From IMG/VR virus record IMGVR_UViG_3300042472_000345, positions 1-61,861 of that record: a stretch of 61,861 nt of DNA. One strand, 5' to 3'. The translations under genes and the position numbers were made by a program. This DNA is from a virus. Its lineage: Duplodnaviria; Caudoviricetes. Under the pieces are notes generated by a model. That model was not told where the DNA came from. It did no database searches and worked only from the letters and a program-made list of their open reading frames with translations. Positions 7,119 through 61,533 of the stretch are shown one piece after another. Each line of letters begins with the position of its first letter. Position 1 is the stretch's first letter.

Positions 7119-7149
7119 TTTGAAATTAAATATTGTTAAATTAGTTTTA
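7119..7149 (+). promoter_or_regulatory. candidate Bacteroidota-type promoter for the capsid operon
   Basis: TTTG 7119-7122, 19-nt spacer, TAGTTTTA 7142-7149 (one mismatch to TAnnTTTG). Confidence 0.45.
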
Positions 7150-7186
7150 CACGTAATATAAACCAAATATTAAACACAACTACATT

Positions 7187-8455
7187 ATGGCTGATAATAC
7201 AGACAACCTGTCTATGGGTAATTTTAGTATCCAAGATACTATGGAGATGGGTATGGGAAATCAGGAATTACTAAATGATTTGTTTTCTCCTGAAACTTCT
7301 ACTTCCAACCCTGAAGATGTCACACCAATCATTAAAGACGCTGAACCTGCTACACCTCCTGCTAAACCAGCAGTACCAAAAGGTAAAGAGATATCACCAG
7401 TTGATGATGATGCTGATGATAAAGAAAAAGGACAATCTCTTATTTCAAACTTCTTAGGTGACAACACTGATGAAGAAGATGAAGATGACGATACACCACC
7501 TGCACCTGTTGCAAAAAATGCACCAACTGATACATCTGATGAAGAAGATGAGGATCCACAAGGTACTCAATTCTCTGCACTAGCAAATGACTTATTCAAG
7601 TTAGGAGTTTTTAATAAAGATGAAGATGACGAAGAAGAACCTATTACAACACCAGAACAATTCTTAGAAAGATTTGAAACTGAAAAGAAAAAAGGAGCTA
7701 CTGAAATGGTTCAAAATTTCATTTCACAATTTGGAGAAGATTATCAAGAAGCTTTTGATGCCATATTTGTAAAAGGAGTTAATCCTAAAGAATACTTTGG
7801 TACATATAACCAGGTGGTTAATTTTGCTGAGATGGATCTCTCAGAAGAATCAAACCAAATAAGAATAATGAAACAAGCATTGGCTGATCAAGGATTTGAC
7901 GCTGATGACATTGATTCAGAAGTTGAAAGACTTCAAAATTATGGTGATCTTGAGAGCGTAGCAACAAAGCATCATAAAGTATTGGTTAAAAAAGAAGCAC
8001 AGAAGTTGGGACAAATGGAAGCTAAGGCTGAACAAGAGTTAAAACAAAAAGCTCAAATTAGAAATCAATATATACAAAATGTTCAAGGTATCCTTGGAGA
8101 AAAATTAAAATCAAAAGAGTTTGATGGTATTCCATTAAACCCAAAATTAGCAACAGAACTACAAGACTTCTTATTAGTTGATAAATGGAAGACAGCATCT
8201 GGAGAAACACTTTCAGATTTTGACAGAACCATTTTAGATCTTAAAAGACCTGAGAATCATGCCATGAAAGTTAAAGTTGGTTTGCTTCTTAAAATCTTAG
8301 AAAAAGATCCAACATTATCAACTATACAAAGAACAGGTGTTAGTAAAAAATCTAACGAGTTGTTTGGAGAAGTTGCAAGACAGGTGACAAAAACAAAAAC
8401 GTCAACTGGTAGTGGTTCAAAAACTAATCCTAATTCGTGGTTCACTAACCTATAA
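7187..8455 (+). CDS. probable capsid scaffolding/assembly protein
   Basis: Acidic low-complexity N-terminus, helical C-terminal half, located between portal and major capsid protein. Confidence 0.6.
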   Translation: MADNTDNLSMGNFSIQDTMEMGMGNQELLNDLFSPETSTSNPEDVTPIIKDAEPATPPAKPAVPKGKEISPVDDDADDKEKGQSLISNFLGDNTDEEDEDDDTPPAPVAKNAPTDTSDEEDEDPQGTQFSALANDLFKLGVFNKDEDDEEEPITTPEQFLERFETEKKKGATEMVQNFISQFGEDYQEAFDAIFVKGVNPKEYFGTYNQVVNFAEMDLSEESNQIRIMKQALADQGFDADDIDSEVERLQNYGDLESVATKHHKVLVKKEAQKLGQMEAKAEQELKQKAQIRNQYIQNVQGILGEKLKSKEFDGIPLNPKLATELQDFLLVDKWKTASGETLSDFDRTILDLKRPENHAMKVKVGLLLKILEKDPTLSTIQRTGVSKKSNELFGEVARQVTKTKTSTGSGSKTNPNSWFTNL

Positions 8456-8490
8456 TAAAGTAATTTAATAACAACAAAAAGTATAACAAA

Positions 8491-46500: not shown

Positions 46501-49500
46501 TAAAACTTGTACAAGAAGCTGAAGAGTTTCAACAAGAAGACTGGACTAGTCTAGAAAAAGATTATGCAAAAATGCTTCCTAATGTTCCATTCTATAGAGT
46601 GAAGAACATGATTCAAGCTACTAATGGAAGACAAGCTTGGGGTATGCTTCACAATGGTGCTGTTTATGTATATGAAAATGCTGAGGTGGGTACTGCTTAT
46701 CACGAGGTGTTTGAAGCTGTATGGAAAATGTTTGCTGGTCCTGCTGAGAAACAATTGATTATTGATGAGTTTAGAAACAGAGAAGGAAGTTATCAAGATA
46801 GATTCACAGGAGAACTTATTGAATATAAAAATGCAACAAACCAACAAATCAAAGAAGAACTTGCTGAACAATTTAGAGATGCTGTTCTTCAAGATAAGTT
46901 AGGAAAACCTGTCGCATCTAAAGGTTTAATTGGTAGACTATTCTCTGAACTGATTGAGTTTATTAAATCTTTCTTTACAGGAAAGAATGCTCAGAAGAAT
47001 ACACAAGAGTTATTTAATAAGATAGGTGATGGGTACTTTGCAAAATACAATCCTTACGAAAGTAAACTTGCTTATGCTAAAGTAGGAGTGATTGATATTG
47101 ATGACGTTGCTGCTGATGAAACATCAGAATTTAGATTGGAGAAAATACCAAGTGCTCAAGCACATGATATTATTCAACACATGACATACAGTACACTTTC
47201 CAATATTGTTGAAAATAAAGGAAATATATTTAACGTACAGAAAGAAAACAAACAAGAGTTATATACAAGACTTAGAAAAGAAGTATTGAATCTTATTAAG
47301 TTCAAGAGAGACCTACTTGTTCAATCTATCAACAAAGGTGAATTAGATGTTGCAACAGCCACTCGTGATATAAACAATCTTGCAACATTATTTGAAGATA
47401 TTAAATCAGAATGGAATCAGATAATTGAAAAACATCAAGAGCATTTGAAAACTTTCTCTATCGAGTTTGATGAGAATGATGATGTAAATGTAACTGATGA
47501 GAACAATTCTGGTAAAGCAGATTATATGGATGCTAGAAAGATTGATTCTTTCAGAAAAGCAAATAGTGTAATTAAACTTTTATTGGCTACACTTCCTAAA
47601 ATGGAATACAATAACAATTACGCTAATCCTATTCCACAACGTTCTTCTGTAGGAGGTATGATATTAATGCCTGCAGATGAAGTTTATGCTACCCTTGTAG
47701 ATAAACTACATAGCTCTGTGAACATTGATGACATGTTTGAAAGACTTAGAGTTCTTGCAAAAGGAAACTCTAACTATGCAAAATTATATACACGTATTAC
47801 AAACAGTCCTTTAGGAGAAGCTATTAACTTTAATAATCTTGAAGATTATAACTTACAGTTAATGAGTGCTTTCTGGAAAGCTGTTAAGAAACAAAATGCA
47901 GATGTTGTAACAGTGTTTGTTCTTCCTTCAGGAGAGATTGTAGTTAGTGATTCAACTCTTACATCAGCAGCTAAACAAGCTGCTCGTGAGATGATGGGTG
48001 GTATCTCTGAAAGAATTAGAGGTGACAAATCTCCATACATTTCTTACAACAGACAAACATTAAAATATAATCCTACATCAATGCTAACTAACAGAAGACT
48101 TAATCCTTCTGATATGTCTAGCTATGTTACATTCTTAAATAATTTAGGAATCAATTTTAAAGTTGCAGATTTAGAAAGTAAAACTAAATTAACACCAGAC
48201 AAACGTAAAATGTTTACAGAAGCTGTTGAAGGACTTCGTGACAGTTTAATTGCTGTAAAAGATATTTCTTCTATCACTTCAAAAACGTTAGACATTGATG
48301 GACGTTTGTTTGAATTAGGATTAGTTAAAGCTGTTCTTGAGAACACTTCATTTGAGACAACTTACTTTAACCTGAATGGTGAACGTACACAATCATATGT
48401 AGGGGTTAGTGCAATTAGTACGTTATACGATGTTCTTTCCAAACTAGAAAACATCAATGATTTAAATGATGTTGAAAGAGGATATTCGTCATTCAAACAT
48501 TTATTGACAGATGTCTTTACAAAAGATAGTAGTGTGATGCTACAAAGAATGTTTGATCTTGATCCAGATGGAGATGGTGGACGTAAAAAGAATACAGAAC
48601 AGTTTATGAAACCTGTATTCATTGATGGTACAGTTGACCAAGAAACAGGTAAGAAAAAAGAATCATCAAAACTTACATTTAAACAAAGACTTGTACAAGA
48701 GATCAACTTGAATCTTGATGGAATCTATTTGAACTTAGTTCCTGGAGATGCTTCTATTGAACATGCTATCAAGATGCATAATTCACAAACACCTTTTGTA
48801 ACTGAGGCATCTTTCTCAAGTGGAGACTATTTAGATATATTCAAGAACTACTTTATCTCTGAGGTTTTATTATCAAGAGATGGAAGAAAAGTTGTTGGAA
48901 ATAAAAATTCACAAGATTTACGTTTCTTCAAAGCTATCTTAGGAAACAGTTTGCATGATAAAATCATAAAAGGAAATCTTAAGAAGACACCACTAGAAAT
49001 TTATAATGCCAATAAAAATGATATCAATGCTGCTGTAAAACAATTTGTTGAAACACAAGCAAAAGATACAGAAGGATTATTGAAAAACTTTGGTGTAATC
49101 ACTTCAACTAAAGAAGAAGGATTAACTGCTAAAGGATTGTCACTTAATCAAAGAGGATTGACACAAGATATTCTTAATAAAAAACTCAAGATACTTTCTG
49201 TAAATTACATGATTGCTAATATTGAGATGCACAAACTTATCTACTCAGATCCTTATCAATATTCTGATGAGTTGAAACGTATCAAAAACTTCAACTCACC
49301 TAGACAAGCACTTGTGTATGGATCTACAAGAATAAATGTTTCATTCAATGATAAGTATAACAAAGGTTATAATTCAAAAGATATAGGATATACAGACATG
49401 ATGAAAGATTATTTCAGATCTACAGTCATCTCTGACGTATTCTCAACAAATGATCTTCCAGGATATGATGAACCATATGAAGAAACAGATGGTGGTGGTT

Positions 49501-52500
49501 ATATTTCATTGAAAGCCTATCGCATATTTGCTCTTCGTTCAGGAGAATGGAATAGTTCTAAAGAAGCACAATACAGATATGATATTGCTTATGAAAAATT
49601 TGTTAAAGGAATTGATTTAAGTCCTGAAGAAAAGAAATTTGAACTTAAAGAAATTACAGACAAAGAAGGCAATGTTAGAATTGTAGGAAAGAATCCTGGT
49701 GTAGCTAGTGTATACACTCCTATTAAACCTATTGTATCTGGAAGTAAAGCTGATGGCAAAAACTATAATGATATCGTATTAGACAAGTTTGCATTGGTTC
49801 CTCTTTCATTTAGAATTCTTCATGAGATGAATCCTAATTCAAATGCAATGAAGTTCTATGAGAAAATGGCATCAGATAAAGTAGATTATGCTGTTTACAA
49901 GTCAGGTAGAAAAGTTGGAGCTGGTATCACTACACCTTTATACAATACTAATGGTAGTTTCAATACTACACCATTTGCAGAAGTAAACAATATACCATTC
50001 AGTATAATGGGAGTACAATCTGAAGTTCCTTCTAAAGACACTCCATCAGTAACACAGGGTTCTCAGATTACAAAACTTGTAACCATGGACTTCTTAGAAG
50101 CTGGTGTGCCAATTGATTTTGATTCTCAGAATAAAGACTTCAATGATCGTTTTGTTAAATGGGAAGCAATCACTGATGAGAATGAGAGAATGGCACAGTC
50201 TGAGGTATACAGAATGATTAAAAACAATCAAAACTTATTACAAGAAAAAACTGAGGAAGGGTTTAAATCACTTCTTAAAAAACTTGGTATCTCTAAAAAT
50301 AACAAAGGTTTTGTTTTAGCAGATCCAAAGAAATTAATAAATGTATTAAAAGATGAGATTCTAAAAAGAGAAGTAAATGATAACATCACTGCTGCTCTTG
50401 CAGGATTTGAAAAAGGTAGTGTAGTTCTTGAAGCCACTCCTGCATATCAACAAATCAGAAACATTCTTTATTCTATTGCTGACAAGAATGTTGTACGTCC
50501 TAAGATATCAGGTGGATTGAAAGTTCAAATTCCTTCTACATTATTTGAAGGAACTAGAAAAGAAGCCAAACGAATCGTTAAAGAAGATGGTACAGAAACA
50601 TTAGCATACCAATCAGACTCTCTTAAGTTTTATTCTAAATCTAAAGATGGTAAGAAAATCAACGTGTGTGAAATCATGCTCCCTAGATGGTTTGAAAGCT
50701 CTATGTCTGACAAAGAACTTCTTAACTATTTGAATAATACAGATGAAGGTCAAAAGATATTATCAGGACTAGGTTATCGTATTCCTACACAGAAACAAAA
50801 CTCTATTGATAGTTTCATTATCAAAGGATTCCTTCCTGCTGATTTTAAAGATTCTGTTGTAGTTCCATCTGCTCTTGTTAAGAAAGTGGGATCTGACTTT
50901 GATATTGATAAACTTTCAATCTATTTGAAAAATGTTATCACTGATGAGAATGGAGAAATAAGATTGATCGAAAGAAAAGGAACTAAAGAACAAACTATTG
51001 AATACTACTCTAACTTATTTGACAAGTTAATAGATAGCGAACAACAATATGTACTAAGACAACTTGCTAAACTATCTAAAGAAGATGAATTAGATGTTGA
51101 TGCTGAACAACGTCTTATGGATCGACAAGAAAAGATCAATAAGAAAGAGTTAAATAAACAAGACTTCATAGATGGTATATACAAGAAAGTATTAGAGAAC
51201 GAATACATTCAATCTTTACAAGATCTTGTTGAGCATCCTTCAAACTTTGACAGTCTTATTAAACCTAACTCTGCAAAAGAATTAAAAGACCTTACAAAAG
51301 AAATCAATAAAGAACTTGGAATACCTGAAGTTGACTATTCATCTGTTGGTAACATGTTGAATAGAAAGTTCATGTCCACGTTACGTCAATCATTTGTATC
51401 TGGTAAGTATGCAATTGGTATTGCTGCTGTAGGTCAAACTAACCATGCTCAAAATCAACGTTCAGCAATGTATGTTGATATAGATAGATTAAGTCAAGTG
51501 GATGGAGTGGATAGAGAAATTTTAGGTGGTGATCCAAAATCAACCACTTATTCTACAAACCCTAACATTAACTTCAAAGAATACAACACTATATTAATAG
51601 ATGGTAGATTGAAACCAAATCTATCTATGATTAAGAATAAAGCTGGAGAAACTATATCAGATATCATAGGGATGTTTATTGATGGATATGTGGATATCTC
51701 TAAAGGTGCATGGATCATGGAGCTTGGAGCCACTCCTAACGTAGCTTCTACATGGTTGTTCTTAGCCAAAGTGGGTGTGCCTATTAAAACTGTAGGATAC
51801 TTCATGAATCAACCAATCATTAAAGATTACTTACGTTCTGTTGAGAACAAAGGGTACTCTTGGTTATTCATTGATTCTATTATACAAGAGAAACTAGATG
51901 AATATTCTCCTAGTAAAGAAATAGAAATTACAGGAATTCCTGCTGAAGAAGATTTATTTAAAACAATTAAATTTAATCAAGTAGGAGCAAAGGATAAAAT
52001 GGATGATTTCCAAAAAGCTCAACAACAATATATATTGAAAGAGTTTATCAAGTATGCTAAGATGTCTTCTCAATTGTTTGATGTAACACAAGGTTCTAAC
52101 TTTGATACAGCCACAATCAATGATCCATACTTAGTGTTTAAGAAAAGATTGCAATTGGAAAAAGCTCGTAAAACAATCATCTCTTCTGTAGATAAGTTGT
52201 TAGACAAATCATTTATTGGTCCTTTGAAAGATCTTATTTATGATTTCAGAGATGCATTTGCAGAGATTCTTATTTCTGATAAACCTAATGTAAGAAAAGT
52301 GATGGAAGATGTCCTCACTCCTTATGTAGGATTAAGTGACAGAGACTTTGTTAAAGTGTCTCAGAAAGCTGTTAATGATCTTTTTGACTGGGCTATGCAA
52401 ACTAATGATACAGTTAACATCAATGTTGCCAATATATTATTAGGAAGTGACACAAGAGAAAATACTGCTCAACAAATCATAAACCTCAGAGATTCCATAT

Positions 52501-53549
52501 TAGGAAATGAATCAAAAGGTATGACAGGAAATCCTTTACACCCATTGTACAATAACATCATTCTTAATTCCATTAAGATGGAGGCTGGTGCTAGAGAGGG
52601 TAAAGTTAATAACCTTTACATTGCAGGAAGAGATAACAAAGTGTATGATCAAAACCTCATCATATATGGATTCAGTGAACTTAAAAAGTATTTAGGTAGT
52701 GAAGGTAAAGATCTTTATGGAAAACTTGTAAGACTTGCTGTATTGCAGTCAGGACTTACTAACTCTCCTATTGCTTTCACCAACTTACTTCCATACGAAG
52801 ATTTCAAAGCAGTGTACAATAATACATTGTCCAATTTAGAAAATATGCCTAACTTAGCTGACTTCCAAAAATTACATGTGTTTGAAAGAAACAATTGGAA
52901 CAACTCAGACATCATACCATTCATGAAAGCTAAGATGAAAATGGGTGAAGATTTCTATTCAGGGTTTGCAACATTCTATGATCCTAATACTTCATACTTG
53001 AATGAAAACTTGAAGAATGCAGTGAGAGAGGGAAAACTTCCAAAGCTTGTAGCAATCAGCGCATTCTCATCTGAAGGAAGGAGTGAATTTGTTTCATACA
53101 GTTGGACTGATGATATTCCATACGCAGAACAACTCAAAAGAGCAAAAGCAGGAGATCGTTCTCATATCAAGAAAGTGTTATTGCAAAAAGTGTACACAAA
53201 AGATGATAAGAATAATCCAATTCCTTTAATGCAAATTGATGAAAAAACTGACAAACAAGGAAAACCTGTTGTGTATATGAAATACATATACAAAGCAATC
53301 AATGCTTGGGGAGATTCATTCAGAGCTCAAGAGTTCTATGATGATATTCGACCATCAGTGCTAGACAATGATTTTGAGAAAGTAGAAAGAATAACAGATG
53401 CTCAAGGTAATCAGATTGCATCAGGTGAAGTGAGTGATGAAGAAATTGCATCAGTGTTTGGTAATCAGCCAGTAGCTCAACCAGTAATTGAAGAACAAGA
53501 AGAATCTTGGGAAGAAGAAGACAACAATGATACATGCAATCCTTTTTAA
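40530..53549 (+). CDS. giant virion-packaged DNA-dependent RNA polymerase polyprotein (crAss-like)
   Basis: 4339 aa; GSDFDIDKL catalytic DxDxD at 50895-50909 preceded by YRIPTQ; ETDGGGY; hydrophobic N-terminal segments; zincin-like HEVFE at 46701. Confidence 0.88.
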   Translation: MPDNKPKIVNLRGVAQGLPTTPDVPTPNSAFGGEPNNNRSFDDIWRAGLAAPKELGVAQIPLSSIYKGNRYKETLPGTDYEEMAAQQQSGLSKLGNATAKFAGVAGTSFVSGTVGLVAGIGTAVRDQRWAGLIDNDVTRGMDDIMKNLEDELPNYYTHQEQDASWYSPDNILTVNFWSDKVLKNLGYSVGALAGGVAWGSVLRGIGLTSKLVQAGKGLQAATAIEEAMSVAPKLGKYAAFENTLNSLAQQYVKSPVSSVLKNSDRILTSAMGTFGEASMEGLQSMNTFRNKAIEEYKSVYGLDPTGESLEQINEMADKVGMHTWGANSLLLTATNYIQLPKILGSSRKADKALINKIEQETLGGGFVQNVPKTAFGRITKGVGSTMKSLATGKATVLFAPSEAFEEGMQSAIQTGVTNYFERAYKNRNGSKKILTDISESWGNIFTEGIPETLTSKEGLESILIGGLSGGIQQAGFVGTYKDEKGKTRIGVGKSGLIAEQGLFGLGGERQANTEAALTALNKTNVDKALKDQLKFMGIGIGSQKLRQQAIANNDLLSEKDYEKDFALSYVMPRAKYGKIESVNEELDYYKNQAMDADGFRQLVTGGIVNENETREDFIQRIDNLQSVAKNVDNLYSKLNDKYGDKIVDGQRVYSDDVIDRLVYAASKIKDYDSRIPGINGFLLENNIITQDIIKDVLEDDSVDVDSYKAALSTIANMDVDNDTKQDLIQDLNDLAEIAVRRKAFINEYNDILAKPENYKDELIENTPDDEPQELLALPEGRGVNPDGTSVEDIEGQENVPSVNITTKAGIRNIKLNKEYFLGRIVEYDAKGKEVYRAPMLTVLGENEDGTIKIRTSNGRIRDISKEEFEDYNLVEVDKAQSNKKLNYYMKHWNTVFEHYGRKNKDGSPAKGRLEYNDKDRTLTLVYTRDGKVKREEFTGDQVDDALAKKKGYKHPLIKAVGELTAEQIQAEQEFNEDAKTDPRVTEKRQERLRILNELFDDLSKRQDSTKSLIEQKQKSFEAISEELAELQKEIEQNAQVDNRSKKAIRFKKVTKKALDNAMKLSRMQTQLEEEVEKLQSDLQEIEYNMEYVADVASNIDEYSTNFYEFKNELENELLDLEMLQEKTAKQISFISKLIDEVQRAIDSAISLLSGLIQDFENRYPNVPRLMGQDWVDFLKENPNFLKIKPNYREELQNLEDIVSVMEDGDITPNEKRIEDLKEHIDIMVGQLKDLNNEITAKGLILDKFEQVAEKYKQQKIQEDFLKNNPKLTQQLFATLTTDVQNFFGTKQYEPVSKKNEYDVVGGSRPAADDNIPHQARANYFGNKFQTFTNKNRLKAMIVTAKTEDQIIPGLTESFLKDIAEGTRKDTARNEIIYMVMVQDNGNGAHSVVGQDGQPLAEGANKIDNAIYQVFPAETLTGEYDGKKQSMFREGTPENIVTSFTQQYKQWRTGQLSQAVLGEPQAFTPSFGSPKLVTVRDVAGNETVDKGARTSAQAAGLVTNSTLRKEPVIQVAVTNDTIKEGSVAFNTPKGRVFLKVPGVGMAKLFNRKFNDKEANTIYDVILQVSKNALEDGELKERSNELFEWLKSTIYWGFAHYPDGKPKPFGYNNVWFETVTEDGKPVTKLFITGLTKDSKQMFNFTPSELGSPSTRAEIVGLLKQLYNNTNNSKLKGDNFNNPYFEITGIDKQGNPIYQRWPNYQTYLLSDKAPNENGELTITREGKDLPLATQYKPVTESNPVNRTGIYFTLDSTVDDYVKPSAPVVMEQPVQQPVQKVAPVQQAQPAQAAQPAQPVSTPAPVQPTVQPSPTTYNLNGQAENIKVFGRGAGPVKFKANLEGIVDFLKTIPNHLELIKDNVILPANVIQSLKAEKLIDITDPSNEDAIFSIKGDLLNSAIDRELPASETTDAVLFPKAVGIVIQTIFKDITPQITQKLVPVQPAIQDSAPTETPTVQTSDTEEVQEAEEIEEIEDDSEDFNTPSTGRTDETFRLKLVQEAEEFQQEDWTSLEKDYAKMLPNVPFYRVKNMIQATNGRQAWGMLHNGAVYVYENAEVGTAYHEVFEAVWKMFAGPAEKQLIIDEFRNREGSYQDRFTGELIEYKNATNQQIKEELAEQFRDAVLQDKLGKPVASKGLIGRLFSELIEFIKSFFTGKNAQKNTQELFNKIGDGYFAKYNPYESKLAYAKVGVIDIDDVAADETSEFRLEKIPSAQAHDIIQHMTYSTLSNIVENKGNIFNVQKENKQELYTRLRKEVLNLIKFKRDLLVQSINKGELDVATATRDINNLATLFEDIKSEWNQIIEKHQEHLKTFSIEFDENDDVNVTDENNSGKADYMDARKIDSFRKANSVIKLLLATLPKMEYNNNYANPIPQRSSVGGMILMPADEVYATLVDKLHSSVNIDDMFERLRVLAKGNSNYAKLYTRITNSPLGEAINFNNLEDYNLQLMSAFWKAVKKQNADVVTVFVLPSGEIVVSDSTLTSAAKQAAREMMGGISERIRGDKSPYISYNRQTLKYNPTSMLTNRRLNPSDMSSYVTFLNNLGINFKVADLESKTKLTPDKRKMFTEAVEGLRDSLIAVKDISSITSKTLDIDGRLFELGLVKAVLENTSFETTYFNLNGERTQSYVGVSAISTLYDVLSKLENINDLNDVERGYSSFKHLLTDVFTKDSSVMLQRMFDLDPDGDGGRKKNTEQFMKPVFIDGTVDQETGKKKESSKLTFKQRLVQEINLNLDGIYLNLVPGDASIEHAIKMHNSQTPFVTEASFSSGDYLDIFKNYFISEVLLSRDGRKVVGNKNSQDLRFFKAILGNSLHDKIIKGNLKKTPLEIYNANKNDINAAVKQFVETQAKDTEGLLKNFGVITSTKEEGLTAKGLSLNQRGLTQDILNKKLKILSVNYMIANIEMHKLIYSDPYQYSDELKRIKNFNSPRQALVYGSTRINVSFNDKYNKGYNSKDIGYTDMMKDYFRSTVISDVFSTNDLPGYDEPYEETDGGGYISLKAYRIFALRSGEWNSSKEAQYRYDIAYEKFVKGIDLSPEEKKFELKEITDKEGNVRIVGKNPGVASVYTPIKPIVSGSKADGKNYNDIVLDKFALVPLSFRILHEMNPNSNAMKFYEKMASDKVDYAVYKSGRKVGAGITTPLYNTNGSFNTTPFAEVNNIPFSIMGVQSEVPSKDTPSVTQGSQITKLVTMDFLEAGVPIDFDSQNKDFNDRFVKWEAITDENERMAQSEVYRMIKNNQNLLQEKTEEGFKSLLKKLGISKNNKGFVLADPKKLINVLKDEILKREVNDNITAALAGFEKGSVVLEATPAYQQIRNILYSIADKNVVRPKISGGLKVQIPSTLFEGTRKEAKRIVKEDGTETLAYQSDSLKFYSKSKDGKKINVCEIMLPRWFESSMSDKELLNYLNNTDEGQKILSGLGYRIPTQKQNSIDSFIIKGFLPADFKDSVVVPSALVKKVGSDFDIDKLSIYLKNVITDENGEIRLIERKGTKEQTIEYYSNLFDKLIDSEQQYVLRQLAKLSKEDELDVDAEQRLMDRQEKINKKELNKQDFIDGIYKKVLENEYIQSLQDLVEHPSNFDSLIKPNSAKELKDLTKEINKELGIPEVDYSSVGNMLNRKFMSTLRQSFVSGKYAIGIAAVGQTNHAQNQRSAMYVDIDRLSQVDGVDREILGGDPKSTTYSTNPNINFKEYNTILIDGRLKPNLSMIKNKAGETISDIIGMFIDGYVDISKGAWIMELGATPNVASTWLFLAKVGVPIKTVGYFMNQPIIKDYLRSVENKGYSWLFIDSIIQEKLDEYSPSKEIEITGIPAEEDLFKTIKFNQVGAKDKMDDFQKAQQQYILKEFIKYAKMSSQLFDVTQGSNFDTATINDPYLVFKKRLQLEKARKTIISSVDKLLDKSFIGPLKDLIYDFRDAFAEILISDKPNVRKVMEDVLTPYVGLSDRDFVKVSQKAVNDLFDWAMQTNDTVNINVANILLGSDTRENTAQQIINLRDSILGNESKGMTGNPLHPLYNNIILNSIKMEAGAREGKVNNLYIAGRDNKVYDQNLIIYGFSELKKYLGSEGKDLYGKLVRLAVLQSGLTNSPIAFTNLLPYEDFKAVYNNTLSNLENMPNLADFQKLHVFERNNWNNSDIIPFMKAKMKMGEDFYSGFATFYDPNTSYLNENLKNAVREGKLPKLVAISAFSSEGRSEFVSYSWTDDIPYAEQLKRAKAGDRSHIKKVLLQKVYTKDDKNNPIPLMQIDEKTDKQGKPVVYMKYIYKAINAWGDSFRAQEFYDDIRPSVLDNDFEKVERITDAQGNQIASGEVSDEEIASVFGNQPVAQPVIEEQEESWEEEDNNDTCNPF

Positions 53550-53559
53550 TAAATAAACC

Positions 53560-56500
53560 ATGAGTTGTAACGACAAAAAAAAGTTTAGAACTTCAGAAGC
53601 ATCAACAAAAGCATCCTTAAGAACTAAGGGTGCTATTGATAAATTTTTAAATATTATTGATTATAATAAGTTTAACAACTTAAATAATCAATGGAGTAAA
53701 GATGCTCAAGAACGTTTTGATATTAAGGGTAAACTTTTTTCAGAAGAGAACAGCAGAGCTATTCCAAATAAAGAAGCATTTAAAAAAATTGATAACTCTA
53801 AAGGTATCTTCTATCAAGAGGATGAAATGCCTGTATCTAAATCTTCTGCTGAGACATTAGCTATTATGAAAGCTGCTGCTCAGAAGATGGGCATAGACTT
53901 CCAATCTCTTGAGGAGTATGCTAAAGCTAATCCAGACATAAATGTAAAAGGTGTAAATGGTCTTGCTGATCTTATCAAAGGAACAATTGCAGTGGCACAA
54001 GGAATGGAAAGCGTTGCTACAACAGAAGAGATTGTGCACATTGCTACAGCTATTCTTGAACAAACCAATCCAAAATTTATTACAGCTCTTATCAGTAAGA
54101 TTGATAGATTCAAGATATATAAAGAAGTTTTGGACAAGTATGGTAAGAGAAAAGAATACCAACTATCTAATGGTAAACCAGACATTCGTAAGATTAAGAA
54201 AGAGGCTGTTGATAAATTAATAACTGAACTTATAGTTAAACAATCAGAAGGCTCTACAGAGTTTCCTGAGTTAATGGAAGAAGAAAATAGAAACATGATT
54301 CAAGAATTTTGGAATACTATTCTTGATTACATCAGAGGTATCTATGGTAAATCTAACATTGACATTTTTGAAACAGCTGCACAACAAATTGCAACTGCTC
54401 AAGTAGATGGTACAGTTGCTGACATACAAGAAGGAGGAGTATTTTTTAACTTATCTGATGATGTCAAAAAACAAATAGATGATCTATACAATGCATATAT
54501 TGAAACTGCTAATAAGATTAAAGGACCTTTTCCTGAAGTTTTAGATAAAGATGGTAATGTTATAGACAAACGACACTATACTTATGAAGGTAATAGAGTA
54601 GGTCAAACTGTTACAGAGAAAGTAAAAGGAAAATTCAATAAAATTTTTGAAAGAACTCCTGCTCAAAAAATAGAAGATGACCAAAAGAAAGACTGGGGAT
54701 CTGAAGGACATAGATTTTTAGAACAACATTTTCTTACAAACTTAATAGATAAAGATGGTTACAAAAGAAAACCTTCTGGAACAGAATCTATATCGTCAAC
54801 ATTAAGTCCAGAAATACAAATTCAATTAAGAAGATTTGCAAAAGAACTTATAGACTCATATCCAGAAGGAACTAGATTCCTTGTAGAGAAGGAAGTGGTA
54901 AACACTAAAGTTAAAGACATGCTAGCTTCCACTGTGGATTTCAAGGCTATCTATCCTGTAACTAAAAAAGACAACACACAAGGATTCAAAGTTGATACAC
55001 TTGACTGGAAGTTTACAAGTATAAACAAAACAACAGAAGAAGATATTCCATGGTTTAAACAAAAAGAATGGATTCCTCAGATGGGTGAATACACTCAGAT
55101 TGATTACAACCTTGGTGTTAAAAGAGATCAGATAGGTAAAGCTAGAATGGTTCCATTTATAGTAAACTATGATTATGCTATAGTTAATGATAGAAAGTCT
55201 GGTCTTATTCCTACAGCTATTGAAATAGGAAAACTTGATTCATTAACAGAGACAAACTTATACTTACTTCCTGTTCCTTCAGCTGCTGAATCAACAGGTA
55301 ATTCAGGAGTAGATGCTCTTGTTAAATCTTTAAGAGAGCACTGGGAAAAAATATCCAAAATAAAAATTACTTCTGTTGAGCAAAAGATTGCTAGAACAGA
55401 ACAACTTAATGAACTTAGTAAGGCTATTCGTAACTTACATATCAAGTTAAACTTTGCACCATTGCAAGCAGTGGGTGAAACATTCTTGAAGAGTGCAAAG
55501 AAGACAGTAGATTCATTTGAGAATTTAGATTATTCTACATTATCAAAAGATGAAATTAAGAAAAAACTTGCAGACTTATTAGAATATTCAAAAAGTGCTG
55601 AGAAATTTAGAGCATTAGATCAGGTGTTTCTTTCTCAATATCCAAGAGAAGGAATGACTGCTGAAAACAAAAAGACACTTCTTGAATTAGAACACTTAAG
55701 TAAAAGTACAGAAAGGATGCTTAAGAAAATTCTTCAACTTCAAACAGAATATGCTATTCAGTTAGGAGAGAAAGAAGGATTTGATATGCCCTACACTGAA
55801 GATGAATTAGGGAATAAAAAGTTACAAGCTGAAGCTGAGATAAGTGGTTTTGCTAAGACTTGGGCTGAGGGAACTAAACTCAATGCAAGAATTATAAAAC
55901 TTGCTTCTAACTTATTGATGAATGCAAAGAGTCTTGTAAACATTAAGTTTAAACAAAACTATACAGAGTTTCAACAATTACTTGAACCATTAGAAAAAGA
56001 AGCTAGTAAACAAGGTAAGAACGCATTTGATTTTATAGGAAGAATAACCCCATCAGGATTAAAACTTATTAATAAAATTGATCCTAAATTTTGGGCTCAA
56101 CTTAAAGAAGCTTCTGAGAAAAAAGACGTTGATTTCTTCTTAAGAAACATAAACGTTGATAAATATAACAGATTAGCAAAAGAAGAAATTAATAAAGGAA
56201 TACAAGTTATAAACGATACAACTTATTCATCTGAAGAAGAAGAAGATGTACGTATAAGAGAATTCAGAATAAGTAAACTAAAAGACTCCCTTGATATAAA
56301 CAGAGATTCATTTAATGGATTCAATAGATACGAGTTCAAAAAACTAGTTAATCAAACATTAAAAGAAGACAAGTTATATTCTAATGAGTTTAGAGAACTT
56401 ATTAAAAACAAGCCTGCATATGACATGTGGCAATATTTCACTGCACTTAATAATAAAGCTAAGTTGCTTGGATATATTTCAGAAAAAGAAACTTCCTTCT

Positions 56501-58467
56501 TCCCATTAATAGAAGCTACTACAATTCAGAAGTTTGCAAAAAATAAAGACTTCTTAGGTCAAGCAAGTGAGAGTTTTTGGAAAGATCTTTATCAAACAAG
56601 AATTAACGAAGAACAAAATCTTTCTAAGATTGATCCTGAGACAGGAAAGGTTAGAAAAGAAATTCCTAAATACTTTACCAAAACAGACAAAGATGTAAGT
56701 CAGCTATCTACAGATCTTAATAAAGTGGGAGCTATGTGGATTAAATCATTATTGGAGTATGAGAAGTCTGCAAACATGGAAGAAACTATGCAGACACTTC
56801 TTGCTGTTGAAAAAGCAAAAGGTTCATTAATGAAAGATCAAGAAGGTAGAATCATATTTGATGAACAAGGTCCAAAGGTAAATGAAGCAGAAAATAGAAA
56901 TGCTATTGTATTAGAAACAATCATCGATGATGGACTATACAAATTAACAGAAGACTTAGGATCTTTAGGAAATATTGGAATTGGTAAAGTTGGAGAGAAG
57001 CTTGGTAAAACAGAAGAAGACAAATCAAAGAAAGCAGTTAACATTAAGAAAGGACTTAAGAATCTTGATACATTAACTAGAGCTCTTGCTGTTGGTCTTA
57101 AACCTCTTATTGGACTTGCAAACTGGGCAGGTGGTCAGTTCCAATCTTACATCAATGCTGGAGGAATGTATCGCTTTAGAGAGTTTGAGAAAAACAATGG
57201 AAAAATTAGTTTACCTTTTGGTAAAGGATTGTCAACTATTGAGAAAGGTTTATTAGATTTAATTGTTCCATTGAATGATGACATTGTTACAGAAGAAGCA
57301 AGAAGAGCTACATGGGAGAAAGGTCAGTATGCTAAATGGTTAGGTACATGGACATTCTCTGACACAATGATGATAACTAACTCATTTGGTGAGAAGAAAT
57401 TACAATTTGCTAATGCAATGAGTTTTAATGACAACTCAATGGTTGTAAATGGAAAGATTGTAAACATTAGACAATTTATAAAAGCTCAAGATAGAGCAGC
57501 TAAATATGATCTTTCTGAATCAGCAAGAAAGGAACTTGAAAAAACATTTGAAGAAAGAGTTCAAGAACTTAAAGAATCTTCTTCTTTAGCTAAGGTTGCT
57601 AAGATTGAAAATGATAAACTTGTTATTCCTGGAGTTACTGATGAAGAATTAGCTAAGTATAGAACTACAGTTATTGAGTATGGTAGAAAGCTTAATGGTC
57701 AAATGAATGAAGACAACAAAGCTGGCTACAGAAGAGATACAATCATTTCATCATTTATGATGTTTAAGACATGGATTCCTAAATTAGTTTCTGAACGTGG
57801 AATGGACATTACTAAAAATGTTGAACTTGATGAATGGGAATATGGTAGAGTTAGACTTTTCTTTAAAACTTGGAATCAATTAGGAACAAGAAATCTTTTG
57901 AAGATGCGTGAGATCATCAATGGTACTGATGAAGGTTTACGAATCTTAGATGAAATGCTTGAAGCAAAAAAAGATGATTACTATAAAAAAACTGGCCAGG
58001 TTCTTGAGATAACCACTGAGGAGTTTTATGATCTTGTAAGAAAAGAATTAACTAATGAAATGAAAGAGTTAAAACTTTTATTAATTGTTGCTGCAATGAT
58101 GTTTGCAGCTGCTGCTGCTGAACCACCTGAAGATGCTGATGATCAAACAAAAAATTTATATAAATTAGCTGCTAGAGGATTGCATAAAATTTCTGATGAG
58201 ATTACATTCTATTATAACCCTGTATCTTTTGAAGGTATGACTAAAGGTTCTGTACTTCCATCATTGAATATAATTACAAAAGCAATGAGAATCTTTAATG
58301 CAATAGGTAAAGAGATGGAAGATCCTGACAAAGCATATCCAATGAAGTATTTCTTTGCAATGATTCCTGGAATTTCTCAATTTCAAACTGAGATACTTCC
58401 TTACCTTTATCCTGAACTTGCTAAAGAAATGGGCATCAGAGTGAGTGCAGAATCAAGAAGACAGTAA
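53560..58467 (+). CDS. large virion ejection protein with PD-(D/E)xK nuclease-like domain
   Basis: 1635 aa; GSEGH..E...VEKEV...ASTVD...LDWKF...QMGEY pattern; degenerate zincin EEIVH. Confidence 0.6.
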   Translation: MSCNDKKKFRTSEASTKASLRTKGAIDKFLNIIDYNKFNNLNNQWSKDAQERFDIKGKLFSEENSRAIPNKEAFKKIDNSKGIFYQEDEMPVSKSSAETLAIMKAAAQKMGIDFQSLEEYAKANPDINVKGVNGLADLIKGTIAVAQGMESVATTEEIVHIATAILEQTNPKFITALISKIDRFKIYKEVLDKYGKRKEYQLSNGKPDIRKIKKEAVDKLITELIVKQSEGSTEFPELMEEENRNMIQEFWNTILDYIRGIYGKSNIDIFETAAQQIATAQVDGTVADIQEGGVFFNLSDDVKKQIDDLYNAYIETANKIKGPFPEVLDKDGNVIDKRHYTYEGNRVGQTVTEKVKGKFNKIFERTPAQKIEDDQKKDWGSEGHRFLEQHFLTNLIDKDGYKRKPSGTESISSTLSPEIQIQLRRFAKELIDSYPEGTRFLVEKEVVNTKVKDMLASTVDFKAIYPVTKKDNTQGFKVDTLDWKFTSINKTTEEDIPWFKQKEWIPQMGEYTQIDYNLGVKRDQIGKARMVPFIVNYDYAIVNDRKSGLIPTAIEIGKLDSLTETNLYLLPVPSAAESTGNSGVDALVKSLREHWEKISKIKITSVEQKIARTEQLNELSKAIRNLHIKLNFAPLQAVGETFLKSAKKTVDSFENLDYSTLSKDEIKKKLADLLEYSKSAEKFRALDQVFLSQYPREGMTAENKKTLLELEHLSKSTERMLKKILQLQTEYAIQLGEKEGFDMPYTEDELGNKKLQAEAEISGFAKTWAEGTKLNARIIKLASNLLMNAKSLVNIKFKQNYTEFQQLLEPLEKEASKQGKNAFDFIGRITPSGLKLINKIDPKFWAQLKEASEKKDVDFFLRNINVDKYNRLAKEEINKGIQVINDTTYSSEEEEDVRIREFRISKLKDSLDINRDSFNGFNRYEFKKLVNQTLKEDKLYSNEFRELIKNKPAYDMWQYFTALNNKAKLLGYISEKETSFFPLIEATTIQKFAKNKDFLGQASESFWKDLYQTRINEEQNLSKIDPETGKVRKEIPKYFTKTDKDVSQLSTDLNKVGAMWIKSLLEYEKSANMEETMQTLLAVEKAKGSLMKDQEGRIIFDEQGPKVNEAENRNAIVLETIIDDGLYKLTEDLGSLGNIGIGKVGEKLGKTEEDKSKKAVNIKKGLKNLDTLTRALAVGLKPLIGLANWAGGQFQSYINAGGMYRFREFEKNNGKISLPFGKGLSTIEKGLLDLIVPLNDDIVTEEARRATWEKGQYAKWLGTWTFSDTMMITNSFGEKKLQFANAMSFNDNSMVVNGKIVNIRQFIKAQDRAAKYDLSESARKELEKTFEERVQELKESSSLAKVAKIENDKLVIPGVTDEELAKYRTTVIEYGRKLNGQMNEDNKAGYRRDTIISSFMMFKTWIPKLVSERGMDITKNVELDEWEYGRVRLFFKTWNQLGTRNLLKMREIINGTDEGLRILDEMLEAKKDDYYKKTGQVLEITTEEFYDLVRKELTNEMKELKLLLIVAAMMFAAAAAEPPEDADDQTKNLYKLAARGLHKISDEITFYYNPVSFEGMTKGSVLPSLNIITKAMRIFNAIGKEMEDPDKAYPMKYFFAMIPGISQFQTEILPYLYPELAKEMGIRVSAESRRQ

Positions 58468-58524
58468 TAGCTATATTATGGCATTTATTTACATCTTAGA
58501 TGCCATATAATATATATAAATTGT

Positions 58525-58532
58525 TACATTTG
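58525..58532 (+). promoter_or_regulatory. -7 promoter element for the lysis cassette
   Basis: TACATTTG matches TAnnTTTG; no clear -33 box, which is overlapped by an inverted repeat. Confidence 0.45.
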
Positions 58533-58605
58533 CTTACTACAAATTAATCGTTTTTATCAAGGGAGAGAGTGGAAAACTAGTTACAAACTATAACATCATT
58601 CTTAA

Positions 58606-59049
58606 ATGAGAACATTTCTTTTACAATTACTAGCAGCCTTACTCTTATTCTTTGCGCCAATTCAACAGTTAGTTATGGTCGTAGGTATAGCAATCATGCT
58701 AGACACATTCACAGGTATTTATAAATCAGTTAAATTGAATGGATGGAGATCCATTCGTAGTAGAAAGTTGTCAAATATAATAAGCAAACTGGTTCTTTAT
58801 GAGGTGTCAATCATTCTCCTCTATCCAATTGATAAATTTTTATTGAACGAACTGTTGCTGAACATTGTTTCAGTTCAATTCTTTTCTACAAAAGTTGCAT
58901 GTGTTCTTCTTATTCTAGTAGAGCTTACATCAATTAAAGAGAATGTAGAAGCTGCTCTTAAGATTAATATCTGGCAGATTTTAAAAAGAACAATCAACAG
59001 AGCAAAAGAAATCTCCCATGATGTAGATGACATAGCCAATCCTAAATAA
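58606..59049 (+). CDS. holin (phage holin family 4-like)
   Basis: Three hydrophobic segments; LDTFTG...SRKL...ELTSIKEN pattern. Confidence 0.75.
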   Translation: MRTFLLQLLAALLLFFAPIQQLVMVVGIAIMLDTFTGIYKSVKLNGWRSIRSRKLSNIISKLVLYEVSIILLYPIDKFLLNELLLNIVSVQFFSTKVACVLLILVELTSIKENVEAALKINIWQILKRTINRAKEISHDVDDIANPK

Positions 59050-59055
59050 TATATT

Positions 59056-59430
59056 ATGGATAGTCTAGAAGGATTTATTCCAAAATTTTTAAAAGGAGGA
59101 TGGATTGTTACGTTAATTGGTGCTGCAGGAATGATAGCAAGACTGGCTGTATCTGAAGAAGAGAATGCCATGAATACAATAATCAAGAACATATCTGCTG
59201 CAATGATTGCATCTAGCATCTCTTGGTTCATATTAGAACAGTTCGAAATTAATTCAATGATTAAAGCAGTGACATATGGACTTGTTGGATTAAACTCACC
59301 AGAACTATTAAAAGGTATAACAAAAATATCTGGTGCGTTCTCTGAAGATCCTGCAAAGTTTATAGCCAATGCTAAGAAAGGTAAAGTTACATCAACTAAA
59401 AAACCTGTAAGAAAAAAACCTATAAAGTAA
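59056..59430 (+). CDS. membrane protein, holin-like
   Basis: Two to three hydrophobic helices, basic C-terminal tail KKPVRKKPIK. Confidence 0.55.
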   Translation: MDSLEGFIPKFLKGGWIVTLIGAAGMIARLAVSEEENAMNTIIKNISAAMIASSISWFILEQFEINSMIKAVTYGLVGLNSPELLKGITKISGAFSEDPAKFIANAKKGKVTSTKKPVRKKPIK

Positions 59431-60122
59431 TGAATAAGAATACTTCATTAATAGCACTAACTCTAATTATGTTATCAGTTGCAATCTATGGTAAATGGAT
59501 TGAAGTGAAGATATCAGAAAACGCACGAGCTATCATAGAAGATAGATTAAAACCTCAACCATGGCTATCAAGAGCTTTTGATTACTATGGTACACCTATA
59601 GAAGCAAACTTTGTAAATAAAGAATTTTCAGTTGACAAGTTAAAAGAAAATCTTGATTATATAAAAGATTGGAAAAAATCAAGAGACAGTGTGTGGTCAG
59701 CATACATTGCTACTGAAATGGTTCCTGAAGAACAGAAAATTATTGATAAAGTAAACGAGGATACAAAAGAAGTTGATGCTATTATAGAAGACATTATAGA
59801 AGATGTTGAGAACAATAGGAACTTAGAAGAAGTAGACTCTATAATTAAATCAGGTGTTATAGAAAAGAAGATAACACCAATCATGGATAACATTAACCTA
59901 CTAATTGATTTACAATCTACAGAAGGAGAAAAGTTAGCAGATGATATGAAGGTTACAATGTATACATTTTCAAACTTCATGATAGGAGTGTTATCGTTAT
60001 CTTTTATCTTATTAGGTACATTGATATATGATTTTATAAAAACAAAAAGAGAAGCAGCTAAACCTGTAAGAAAACCAAGAACAAAGAAACCAGTTAAACG
60101 TACAACCACTAAAAAGAAATAG
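59430..60122 (+). CDS. two-TM membrane protein with chemoreceptor-like four-helix-bundle extracytoplasmic domain
   Basis: TM - IIEDRLKP..WL...W.AY.AT.M.PEEQ...LIDLQ - TM - basic tail; resembles the 4HB_MCP sensor pattern. Confidence 0.6.
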   Translation: MNKNTSLIALTLIMLSVAIYGKWIEVKISENARAIIEDRLKPQPWLSRAFDYYGTPIEANFVNKEFSVDKLKENLDYIKDWKKSRDSVWSAYIATEMVPEEQKIIDKVNEDTKEVDAIIEDIIEDVENNRNLEEVDSIIKSGVIEKKITPIMDNINLLIDLQSTEGEKLADDMKVTMYTFSNFMIGVLSLSFILLGTLIYDFIKTKREAAKPVRKPRTKKPVKRTTTKKK

Positions 60123-60126
60123 GTAA

Positions 60127-60384
60127 ATGGGATTTTTTAAAGAATTAGTAAGTGATGACAATTCAATAGATGAGAAAGCATTTGTTGGTGTCATTTCATT
60201 TTTTGCAATGGTATTTACATTGTTAGTAGATGTAGTTACAGGGATATGGGGCAAAGAGTTAATCATCAAACAATTTATCTTTGATGGATTTATGACTCTT
60301 ACAATGATCTGTTTTGGTATAGCCACAGCAGGTAAAGTATTTAGTATGAACAAACAAAAGAAAGAACAAGATGCAACTGAGTAA
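60127..60384 (+). CDS. small two-TM membrane protein, holin/antiholin-like
   Basis: 85 aa, two hydrophobic helices, immediately before the endolysin. Confidence 0.55.
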   Translation: MGFFKELVSDDNSIDEKAFVGVISFFAMVFTLLVDVVTGIWGKELIIKQFIFDGFMTLTMICFGIATAGKVFSMNKQKKEQDATE

Positions 60385-60838
60385 ACACTTATCATTAGCT
60401 GAAGTTACAAGAAGTGATTCAGCAAAAAGAAATGGAATAAGCAATGAGCCTACTCCAGCACACTTAGAAAACTTTAAGTTATTAGCTGAAAAAGTATTTG
60501 AACCTATTAGAGAACACTTCAAAGTTCCTATTCATATATCTAGTGGATATAGAAGTGCTGCATTAAACAAAAAGATAGGTGGATCACTTACATCACAACA
60601 TTGTTCTGGTGAAGCAATTGATATCGACATGGATGGTAGTGCAAGTGGTGTTACCAATAAGCAAGTTTTTGATTTCATTAAGCAACATCTAAACTTTGAT
60701 CAAATGATTTGGGAATTTGGTACAGATTCTAACCCTGACTGGGTACACGTATCATACGAATCAACTGGTAAACAACGTAAGCAAGTTTTGAAAGCTGTTA
60801 AACAAGGTGGAAAAACAAGTTATGTACCATATAAGTAA
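60371..60838 (+). CDS. endolysin, peptidase M15 family
   Basis: SSGYRS..LN..IGG...SQH..GEAID...WVHVSY zinc peptidase motifs. Confidence 0.88.
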   Translation: MQLSKHLSLAEVTRSDSAKRNGISNEPTPAHLENFKLLAEKVFEPIREHFKVPIHISSGYRSAALNKKIGGSLTSQHCSGEAIDIDMDGSASGVTNKQVFDFIKQHLNFDQMIWEFGTDSNPDWVHVSYESTGKQRKQVLKAVKQGGKTSYVPYK

Positions 60839-61157
60839 GTTCATAAAACAACAATGGTTAGGAACCATCCTAATTATATTATTCATTCTGTTCTTGGTTT
60901 ATGGAATAGGAAAGAATAGTGAGTTACAAAAAGAAAAACAACGTCTTGAAAAAGAGATTGAAGTGCTTGAGCAAAAGGAAGAACTACACTGGAATAAACT
61001 TGACAGTTTAAAAGTTAGTGAGAGCACTATAATTAAGAAAGAAAAAATATTAATACAGATACAACATGACACAATTAAGATTATTGATACTATGTCTGTT
61101 AGTGAGCTTCAAAAGTATTTCACAAACAGATACAATAAAAAAGATAGTATTAGATGA
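60822..61157 (+). CDS. putative i-spanin
   Basis: Likely ATG 60822; N-terminal TM then coiled coil; follows the endolysin. Confidence 0.6.
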   Translation: MYHISKFIKQQWLGTILIILFILFLVYGIGKNSELQKEKQRLEKEIEVLEQKEELHWNKLDSLKVSESTIIKKEKILIQIQHDTIKIIDTMSVSELQKYFTNRYNKKDSIR

Positions 61158-61533
61158 GAGAGTTGGTAGAGAAGTTGTTAAAGACCTTGTAAGAGGAGAT
61201 ATCTGTAGACAGCTCTTATCACTTGCTCAAGAGAAGAATGATGTTCTTAAAAAACAAACTATTGAACTATATTCAATCATTGCAATTAAAGATAGCATCA
61301 TCTCTAAAAAAGATGAAATAATCACTATACAAGACAAAGCTATTGGCTGGTGGAAGAAACCTGAACTTCATGGATACTTAGGAGTTCAAAGTGTAAATGC
61401 CACTATAGTTAATCCATATTTATATGGAACATTATTACTTGAATTTCCTAAATTTAGTTTAGGAGCACAATACTTTGTACAACCAAACAATCCATCAGGA
61501 TATGGATTTATTGTAGAATATAACTTATTTTAA
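61066..61533 (+). CDS. putative o-spanin-like protein
   Basis: Overlaps the i-spanin 3' end; signal peptide, coiled coil, C-terminal amphipathic beta strands ending YNLF. Confidence 0.5.
   Translation: MTQLRLLILCLLVSFKSISQTDTIKKIVLDERVGREVVKDLVRGDICRQLLSLAQEKNDVLKKQTIELYSIIAIKDSIISKKDEIITIQDKAIGWWKKPELHGYLGVQSVNATIVNPYLYGTLLLEFPKFSLGAQYFVQPNNPSGYGFIVEYNLF

Follow-up and report, generated by a model that had tools for sequence, protein, structure and literature searches.

The window analysed in this work is the whole of a 61,861-bp virus record of IMG/VR (IMGVR_UViG_3300042472_000345), whose completeness was estimated at 53%. Its right end carries a tightly packed row of genes, all on the + strand, and two of them, which overlap each other, are the subject of this report. 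The first codes for a small holin-like membrane protein, p124. The second codes for hb230, in which a four-helix bundle (4HB) lies between two transmembrane (TM) helices. The two genes and the parts of hb230 are listed below. Conservation figures for parts of the two proteins, here and below, are mean pairwise identities over 23 diverse homologues.

59056 to 59430, + strand: p124, holin-like membrane protein of 124 amino acids (aa), the partner upstream of the 4HB gene
59430 to 60122, + strand: hb230, 230 aa, consisting of TM1, four-helix bundle, TM2 and basic tail; Pfam 4HB_MCP_1 (PF12729)
59442 to 59495, + strand: TM1 of hb230 (residues 5-22), within model helix 3-40; 58% identity
59496 to 59957, + strand: four-helix bundle of hb230 (residues 23-176, 154 aa), with helices 23-62 (kink at 41), 68-93, 99-127 and 132-176
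59958 to 60026, + strand: TM2 of hb230 (residues 177-199), with a conserved FSNFMIG motif; 61% identity
60027 to 60119, + strand: basic tail of hb230 (residues 200-230, 31 aa, net charge +12), containing KPVRK

The AlphaFold2 (AF2) model of hb230, based on a 27-row alignment, had a predicted local distance difference test score (pLDDT) of 85.1 and a predicted template modelling score (pTM) of 0.70. Its helices span residues 3-40, 42-62, 68-93, 99-127, 132-141 and 143-209. The open reading frame (ORF) at 59430 had been described, in a sequence-only reading of this DNA, as a TM helix, a helical domain and a second TM helix, and the 154-residue bundle between helices at about residues 5-22 and 177-199 agrees with that description. 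The tail is predicted to be disordered (pLDDT 45-70), and a basic tail was present in 23/23 aligned homologues. The tail has a net charge of +12 and the bundle of about -14. By the positive-inside rule, this predicts a periplasmic bundle and a cytoplasmic tail, the topology that the sequence-only reading had presumed.

The relationship of hb230 to known sensor modules was established by several methods. The protein matched PF12729 with 43.7 bits (cut-off 27) and an E-value of 2.8e-11 over profile positions 12-179 of 181. This was the sole domain found by Pfam. Output domains (HAMP, MCPsignal, HisKA and HATPase_c) were absent at E<=1, and the earlier statement that the protein carries a basic tail and no signalling domain was correct. 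A word-indexed search showed that PF12729 is precomputed on 65/67 hb230 homologues of about 230 aa. IMG/VR contained 81 relatives of hb230. An exhaustive phmmer search with hb230 against 1.84 billion representatives gave 78 matches. Beyond the phage family, the matches reached 3.7e-8 and fell on proteins of 200-1400 aa, with N-terminal residues 10-200 aligned. Ten of the 78 were scanned for domains; all ten contained PF12729, four MCPsignal, two histidine-kinase domains and one HAMP. An hhalign comparison between the phage family (23 diverse members) and its cellular relatives (12 members) gave a probability of 99.6% and an E-value of 1.6e-23 over 168 columns. The phage and cellular families share the motifs DRxxP..L...D.Y, W.aY..T...PEE and P.....L.DLQ. 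The EDRLKP and W.AY.AT...PEE pattern, in which the sequence-only reading had seen a resemblance to chemoreceptor and histidine kinase sensor domains, belongs to these hallmarks common to cellular 4HB_MCP_1 sensors.

A Foldseek search of the PDB with the hb230 model returned at the top the sensor domains of Tsr, Adeh_2942, Vc1313, MCP2201, Tar and NarQ. The TM-score to Vc1313 was 0.78-0.79 with a root-mean-square deviation of 3.4 A. The E-values of these fold matches were modest, just 0.03-0.1, and helical bundle models are known to draw weak matches, which could point to an artefact, namely a helical low-complexity membrane ORF that fits a helical Pfam model by chance. Such an explanation is effectively refuted by the Pfam match above the cut-off over 168 of the 181 positions, by the profile-profile E-value with its shared motifs, by the recurrence of the same domain in nearly all homologues and by the purifying selection described below. 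We regard it as highly improbable. Pfam, AF2, Foldseek and hhalign all agree on the four-helix-bundle fold and homology. Judged from its sequence, hb230 is a genuine relative of 4HB_MCP_1 sensor modules, in which the output domain was lost or never present. We also considered hb230 as a full chemoreceptor or kinase. This candidate was rejected, as the protein has no signalling domain and just 31 disordered residues past TM2.

The nearest cellular sensors are 18-29% identical to hb230. Their subfamily occurs mostly in Pseudomonadota, with a few members in Bacteroidota (Ginsengibacter, Pedobacter). Of the proposal that the phage had captured a sensor domain, the part that stands is the ancient homology; the capture was ancient at best. 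Searches elsewhere were negative. No match to hb230 was found by tblastn in 50,697 GenBank phage records, a set from which records near the window may be missing, and among 34 pattern matches of the hb230 alignment in 185,579 species genomes, 0 were relatives. A family profile search of PDB sequences gave a chance match alone (E 0.12), and PHROGs, NCBIfam and PADLOC gave nothing informative for hb230. The ESM Atlas cluster of hb230 has 102 members, 98% of them viral, with the domain already named automatically. Two purely viral Atlas clusters (190 and 127 members), made up of 'hypothetical proteins' of 200-210 aa, had a score of 0.96 to hb230 and no common Pfam family; they could represent branches of the hb230 family that have diverged further. 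In a BFVD fold search, the best match of hb230 was a fragment named 4HB MCP domain, from a contig labelled as a single-stranded RNA phage (3.9e-4), and an annotated phage analogue was not found.

The conservation of hb230 is concentrated in the TM helices and in the membrane-proximal half of the bundle. It peaks at residues 40-55 (72% identity, 7 invariant columns), and residues 155-176 show 50% identity. F180, F183 and M184 of TM2 are invariant among the 23 homologues. The membrane-distal tips and the loops are the least conserved parts, with 17-39% identity. A phage-specific pocket formed by the invariant residues was considered and ruled out, because these residues are family hallmarks. The ratio of nonsynonymous to synonymous substitution rates (dN/dS) was 0.03-0.2 for p124 and hb230 in 7-8 pairs; dS was often saturated, which makes these values rough. 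These ratios place both genes under purifying selection.

The surroundings of the gene were studied in 80 IMG/VR loci, which were found with an hb230 profile. Homologues of p124 were counted in them by tblastn and not from the ORF cluster table. In the window, the stop codon of p124 and the start codon of hb230 share base 59430 (TAATG), so the overlap reported earlier is present. A p124 homologue lies directly 5' of the 4HB gene in 80/80 loci. From the stop of the p124 homologue to the start of the 4HB gene, the distance is -4 nt (33 loci), -1 nt (13 loci) or +1 to +5 nt (34 loci). The reverse search, which started from p124, found hb230 downstream in 76 of the best 80 of 207 relatives; the remaining 4 contigs end <=133 nt after p124. 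Outside near-identical loci, p124 is better conserved than hb230 (49-77% vs 30-58%). The KPVRK tails, noticed before in both proteins, are confirmed as part of C-termini rich in Lys, Arg, Pro and Thr. The obligate partner of hb230 is p124, encoded by ORF 59056, and not the Phage_holin_4_1 gene at 58606. A complex prediction for the two proteins with 23-row alignments each gave a score of 0.00 and a mark of 0.32; the fold of p124 was uncertain in it, and the result counts neither way.

The p124 protein has TM helices at about residues 14-32 and 46-64, followed by a short hydrophobic helix (67-78), an amphipathic helix and a basic tail (pLDDT of the AF2 model 70.5). With 83% identity in TM1, which has an IGAAGM segment with conserved Gly residues, and 72% in TM2, these helices are among its best conserved parts. 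The same applies to the TM helices of hb230, as expected for contacts within the membrane. The protein fits the architecture of a holin, being small, with 2-3 TM helices and a charged C-terminus, and encoded in a lysis cassette. The Pfam family PF16083 (Phage_holin_3_3, holin superfamily III) was matched by 13/23 members of the p124 family at E<=0.1, with the best value of 2.6e-5 and all matches sub-threshold, and was precomputed on 4 of 120 listed homologues. The nearest ESM Atlas clusters of p124 are named 'Holin family protein' (PF16083/PF05106). In a BFVD fold search, 19 of the top 50 matches were named holin, with weak E-values. No match was obtained by tblastn of p124 and a divergent p124 against the 50,697 GenBank phage records, and PHROGs, NCBIfam and PADLOC gave nothing informative for p124. 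Altogether, the assignment of p124 as a holin is suggestive, not firm. We also considered p124 as the sole holin. This was rejected, as the window has a Phage_holin_4_1 gene and the Flavobacterium phage immuto has one without p124. In BFVD, Pseudomonas phage SM1 has an uncharacterised 210-aa protein similar to hb230 (E 0.034) and an annotated holin similar to p124 (TM-score 0.65); if both genes are neighbours, this cultured phage may have an analogous pair.

The remaining features of the cassette in the window are as follows:

58468 to 58605, + strand: upstream intergenic region, which holds TACATTTG at 58525-58532
58606 to 59049, + strand: hol147, canonical holin candidate of 147 aa; Pfam Phage_holin_4_1 (PF05105)
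60127 to 60384, + strand: p85, small 2-TM protein of 85 aa (cluster c2), TM segments 19-37 and 50-68
60371 to 60838, + strand: lys155, endolysin of 155 aa; Peptidase_M15_3 (6.3e-20) and phrog_894 endolysin (1.6e-37)
60807 to 61157, + strand: isp116, i-spanin-like protein with an N-terminal TM helix and a coiled coil; phrog_1026 Rz-like spanin (3.1e-5) and a weak DivIC match
61066 to 61533, + strand: osp155, secreted coiled-coil protein whose beta-rich C-terminus closes with YNLF, recognised from its sequence

Gene order and Pfam confirm that three membrane ORFs (p124, hb230 and p85) lie between a holin gene and an endolysin gene, as the sequence-only reading had it. The match of hol147 to PF05105 had an E-value of 8.1e-10 and 39.3 bits (cut-off 22.2), and that to NCBIfam holin_1 had 2e-9, under the cut-off of that model. 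The spacing from hol147 to p124 is 7 nt. For p85, no family match was found in Pfam, PHROGs, NCBIfam or PADLOC; a homologue of it (c2) occurs within a few genes of the p124-hb230 pair in 61/80 loci.

The proposed linkage of hb230 homologues to lysis genes is borne out by the loci. Besides the constant presence of p124, a recognised endolysin gene lies <=2.5 kb from the pair in 72/80 loci. The endolysins are of the GH19 (51 loci), M15_3 (15, one also M15_4), GH24 lysozyme (4) and Amidase_2 (2) types. Eight loci have no recognised endolysin, namely four truncated contigs and four with full flanks (L047, L056, L058 and L078). The loci come from related phages, so these are not 72 independent observations. 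On a tree of hb230 with 61 distinct rows from 79 sequences (the truncated L069 was dropped), the endolysin type changes at least three times for M15_3, at least twice for GH24 and at least once for Amidase_2. This repeated replacement of the endolysin next to the pair is a stronger argument for the lysis linkage than the locus count. A blastn search of the cassette against GenBank phage records gave two short endolysin matches alone.

Directly 3' of hb230, 62/80 loci carry a gene for a protein of about 145 aa (e.g., L014 5714-6154), here called outer-membrane-protein-like (OMP-like). The protein combines a signal peptide with an alternating hydrophobic beta pattern and ends in ..G(I/L)NKDF. 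Its matches to beta-barrel families were all sub-threshold (Pfam OMP_b-brl 0.075, NCBIfam 0.069). The gene probably codes for a small phage-encoded outer-membrane protein inside the lysis cassette. Its position suggests that hb230 could be a structural lysis component without any sensing, that is, a co-holin or scaffold whose bundle sets the oligomer geometry or contacts peptidoglycan or the OMP-like protein, and which would aid the disruption of the envelope and not its timing. The pattern of conservation in hb230, strong in the TM helices and the membrane-proximal bundle and drifting at the distal tip, and the holin-style basic tails on both proteins fit this explanation as well. However, the OMP-like gene is missing from the window lineage (13 loci), which has the pair nonetheless. 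Moreover, hb230 has two TM helices, unlike an i-spanin, and the envelope-spanning job seems to be filled by isp116 and osp155 in the window and by lipoprotein-plus-TM proteins in other loci. Nearly all hallmark residues of the signalling family are kept under purifying selection, and a mere spacer would not need them. On balance, we consider a purely structural role unlikely. The identification of hb230 itself as an i-spanin was rejected, since it has two TM helices and a predicted cytoplasmic C-terminus and a separate Rz-like gene exists.

As in overlapped spanin pairs, osp155 begins within isp116 in a different frame, with an overlap of 92 nt. The osp155 protein has a plain signal peptide without a lipobox, and its C-terminal YNLF resembles an outer-membrane beta-signal; no family match was found for it in Pfam, PHROGs or NCBIfam. 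Its homologues (cluster c5) occur in 24 loci, and in other loci c5 ends in a TM helix. The protein may be a non-lipoprotein outer-membrane spanin partner. In several loci, a different gene sits just 5' of the c2-p124-hb230 block. Its products (cluster c18; L038 3906-4343 and L067 3576-4013) are 145 aa long and have the architecture of a unimolecular spanin, in which a lipoprotein-type signal (..LCSC..) is combined with a TM helix at the C-terminus.

The pair was found on several phage backbones. In the window, TerL, portal and capsid are crAss-like, with the terminase, portal and major head genes at 2442-10044. The relatives of the window TerL comprise 77 records, including Flavobacterium (29), uncultured crAss-like (27) and Cellulophaga (9) phages; the best single match is a Leptolyngbya phage (40%). 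Other backbones with the pair are a complete 167-kb record (L014) and a 322-kb record (L033). The 167-kb record is a close relative of the cultured Flavobacterium phage immuto_2-6A; its flanking proteins are 76-96% identical, with 89% for GroEL, 83% for the GH19 endolysin, 85% for Phage_holin_4_1 and 76% for c2. The genes that flank the block (GroES/GroEL and others) are 48-96% identical between immuto and loci L014/L019. In immuto (L235, NC_055915.1 39732-48346), the order is c2-GH19-holin, with nothing between c2 and GH19. In L014/L019, p124, hb230 and the OMP-like gene stand between c2 and GH19, and the relative G001 has both genes of the pair at the place where immuto has none. A whole-genome profile search of the complete immuto_2-6A genome detected neither p124 nor hb230. 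This presence and absence between close relatives indicates that lysis as such does not require the block, which moves from phage to phage. By these comparisons, p124-hb230 is an accessory, mobile module of the lysis cassette. The kinship with immuto speaks for Flavobacterium as the host of some members of the family; for the window itself, a host can be suggested from its TerL relatives alone.

A dispensable block that is mobile across unrelated backbones (the window with its crAss-like TerL, the 160-kb immuto-like type and the 322-kb record) could also be a moron-type cassette without any control of lysis. It could block superinfection at the inner membrane, or hb230 could be a dominant-negative decoy that heterodimerises with 4HB sensors of the host and silences host signalling. 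A decoy would be expected to look like a sensor module that lacks an output domain, and some Bacteroidota do possess members of the nearest cellular subfamily. In known phages, exclusion and outer-membrane morons are located beside lysis genes. Against this, the pair keeps its place in the lysis cassette, always next to the endolysin, through six or more changes of the endolysin family. The translational coupling to a holin-like protein in every locus also argues against a moron, and an identity of 18-29% to cellular sensors is poor for heterodimerisation with a host receptor. The finding of 0 relatives in 185,579 species genomes indicates that it is not a prophage-expressed moron. We therefore judge a moron function to be quite improbable.

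Several other observations were made at this end of the window. The octamer TACATTTG in the intergenic region upstream of hol147 resembles TAnnTTTG, which we take to be the -7 promoter motif of Bacteroidota. This motif showed no enrichment across the window (87 seen vs 89.4 expected), and TACATTTG as a putative promoter of the cassette is only a lead. On the minus strand, an antisense ORF of 164 aa (58875-59369) exceeds in length both hol147 and p124, which it overlaps. In the window and 12 related loci, longest-ORF picking selects this ORF (cluster c10) instead of p124; its conservation follows from that of the sense genes. In naive gene calls it can displace the true gene at 59056 and lead to mis-annotation. 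Immediately 5' of the cassette lie two giant ORFs, 40530-53549 (4339 aa) and 53560-58467 (1635 aa). The former had no PHROG match at 1e-5, and for the latter tblastn gave no match in the 50,697 GenBank phage records. No tRNA genes were found in the window.

Systems in which a phage protein with a periplasmic domain controls the holin are known from lysis inhibition. According to PMC11413866 and PMC7182436, they are the T4 holin T with its antiholin RI and the ICP1 TeaA with ArrA; T4 RI/T is the one system in which the mechanism of such periplasmic control over lysis timing is known in detail, ICP1 being a second case, and the signal that is sensed is debated. Like these regulators as presented there, hb230 is accessory, its gene lies near a holin gene, and it is a candidate for control from outside the cytoplasm. 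Unlike hb230, which is bitopic with a four-helix bundle, T4 RI is small, secreted or tethered, and binds the large periplasmic domain of T. In contrast to T, p124 exposes just a 13-residue periplasmic loop, so any contact with hb230 would have to be in the membrane. The gene arrangement is similar to that of P1 lydA-lydB, in which a small holin gene is followed by the gene of its antagonist with a 4-nt overlap (P1 annotation); the same overlap was found in 33/80 loci. The p124 family matches weakly PF16083, the Pfam family of P1 LydA. Unlike hb230, P1 LydB has no 4HB_MCP_1 domain, and no similarity between LydB and the hb230 family was detected by hhalign (E 0.54).

With the sensor modules of Tar, Tsr, Vc1313, MCP2201 and NarQ, hb230 shares the fold, the TM1-bundle-TM2 architecture and the hallmark motifs. 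It differs from these receptors in having the 31-residue basic tail in place of an output domain, in being encoded by phages only and in its low identity to the cellular members. In our full-text literature search, neither 4HB_MCP/PF12729 nor chemoreceptor ligand-binding domains were linked by any paper to lysis cassettes of phages; the supplementary tables of PMC8776804, outside this search, may list such genes. In part of its text, PMC8776804 mentions unnamed TM proteins near the GH19 endolysins of flavobacterial phages.

Two traits of an antiholin are seen in hb230. Its gene is beside and coupled to that of p124, a putative holin, and it is dispensable by comparative evidence. We tentatively propose, with a little under an even chance of being right, that hb230 is an antiholin-like partner of p124 that couples the state of the periplasm to hole formation. 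Translational coupling would provide hb230 and p124 in a fixed proportion, and the two proteins would associate via their strongly conserved TM helices. TM2 would then be shifted according to whether the periplasmic bundle is free or has bound a ligand or partner, as is established for Tar and NarQ. The holin-like p124 would read this shift inside the membrane, in place of HAMP. As a result, hole formation, and hence lysis, would be delayed or advanced, and the pair would act as an accessory module similar to an antiholin or to lysis inhibition. A narrower proposal is that hb230 is a chemoreceptor-type ligand sensor wired directly to a holin and not to a kinase, so that a small-molecule or envelope cue sets the lysis clock through a shift of a TM helix. 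We consider this version unlikely. As a whole, the evidence suggests, but does not prove, that these phages tune the moment of lysis to a signal from outside the cytoplasm.

The following points weigh against the proposed coupling of hb230 to hole formation. Tar/Tsr-type receptors bind their ligand in the membrane-distal part of the bundle, and this distal half is the least conserved part of hb230. Most residues that are invariant in the phage family are hallmarks of the entire cellular subfamily. HAMP or another known reader of a TM2 shift is absent from hb230. The holin assignment of p124 is weak: the p124 of the window itself has no Pfam match at E<=0.1, and its comparison with P1 LydA by hhalign was not significant (E 0.048, probability 1%). 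The presence of Phage_holin_4_1 in the window and in immuto means that the pair is not needed for hole formation as such. The OMP-like neighbour in most loci fits a role in envelope structure or exclusion at least as well. Binding between hb230 and p124, binding of a ligand and an effect on lysis are proposals drawn from this analysis. With 0 relatives in GenBank phages or in the 185,579 species genomes, the family offers no experimental handle yet. The natural pair of a carrier, the metagenomic relative, and a non-carrier, the cultured immuto, makes a test simple.

The family has so far been annotated as 'hypothetical protein' or by an automatic domain name. What is new is a candidate regulator of a holin, probably facing the periplasm, with a chemoreceptor-type sensor; this kind of regulator is itself known. 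At least 150 contigs of uncultured phages, on several unrelated backbones, couple a holin-like gene to this well-studied sensor fold. The pair is a concrete candidate for environment-dependent lysis in phages of the abundant aquatic Bacteroidota. If the narrower ligand-sensor proposal is true, it would be a new viral route to an environment-dependent lysis decision and a case of minimal transmembrane signalling that is free of an output domain. Such a coupling would also show how a chemoreceptor sensor module can act when a cytoplasmic output domain is lacking.

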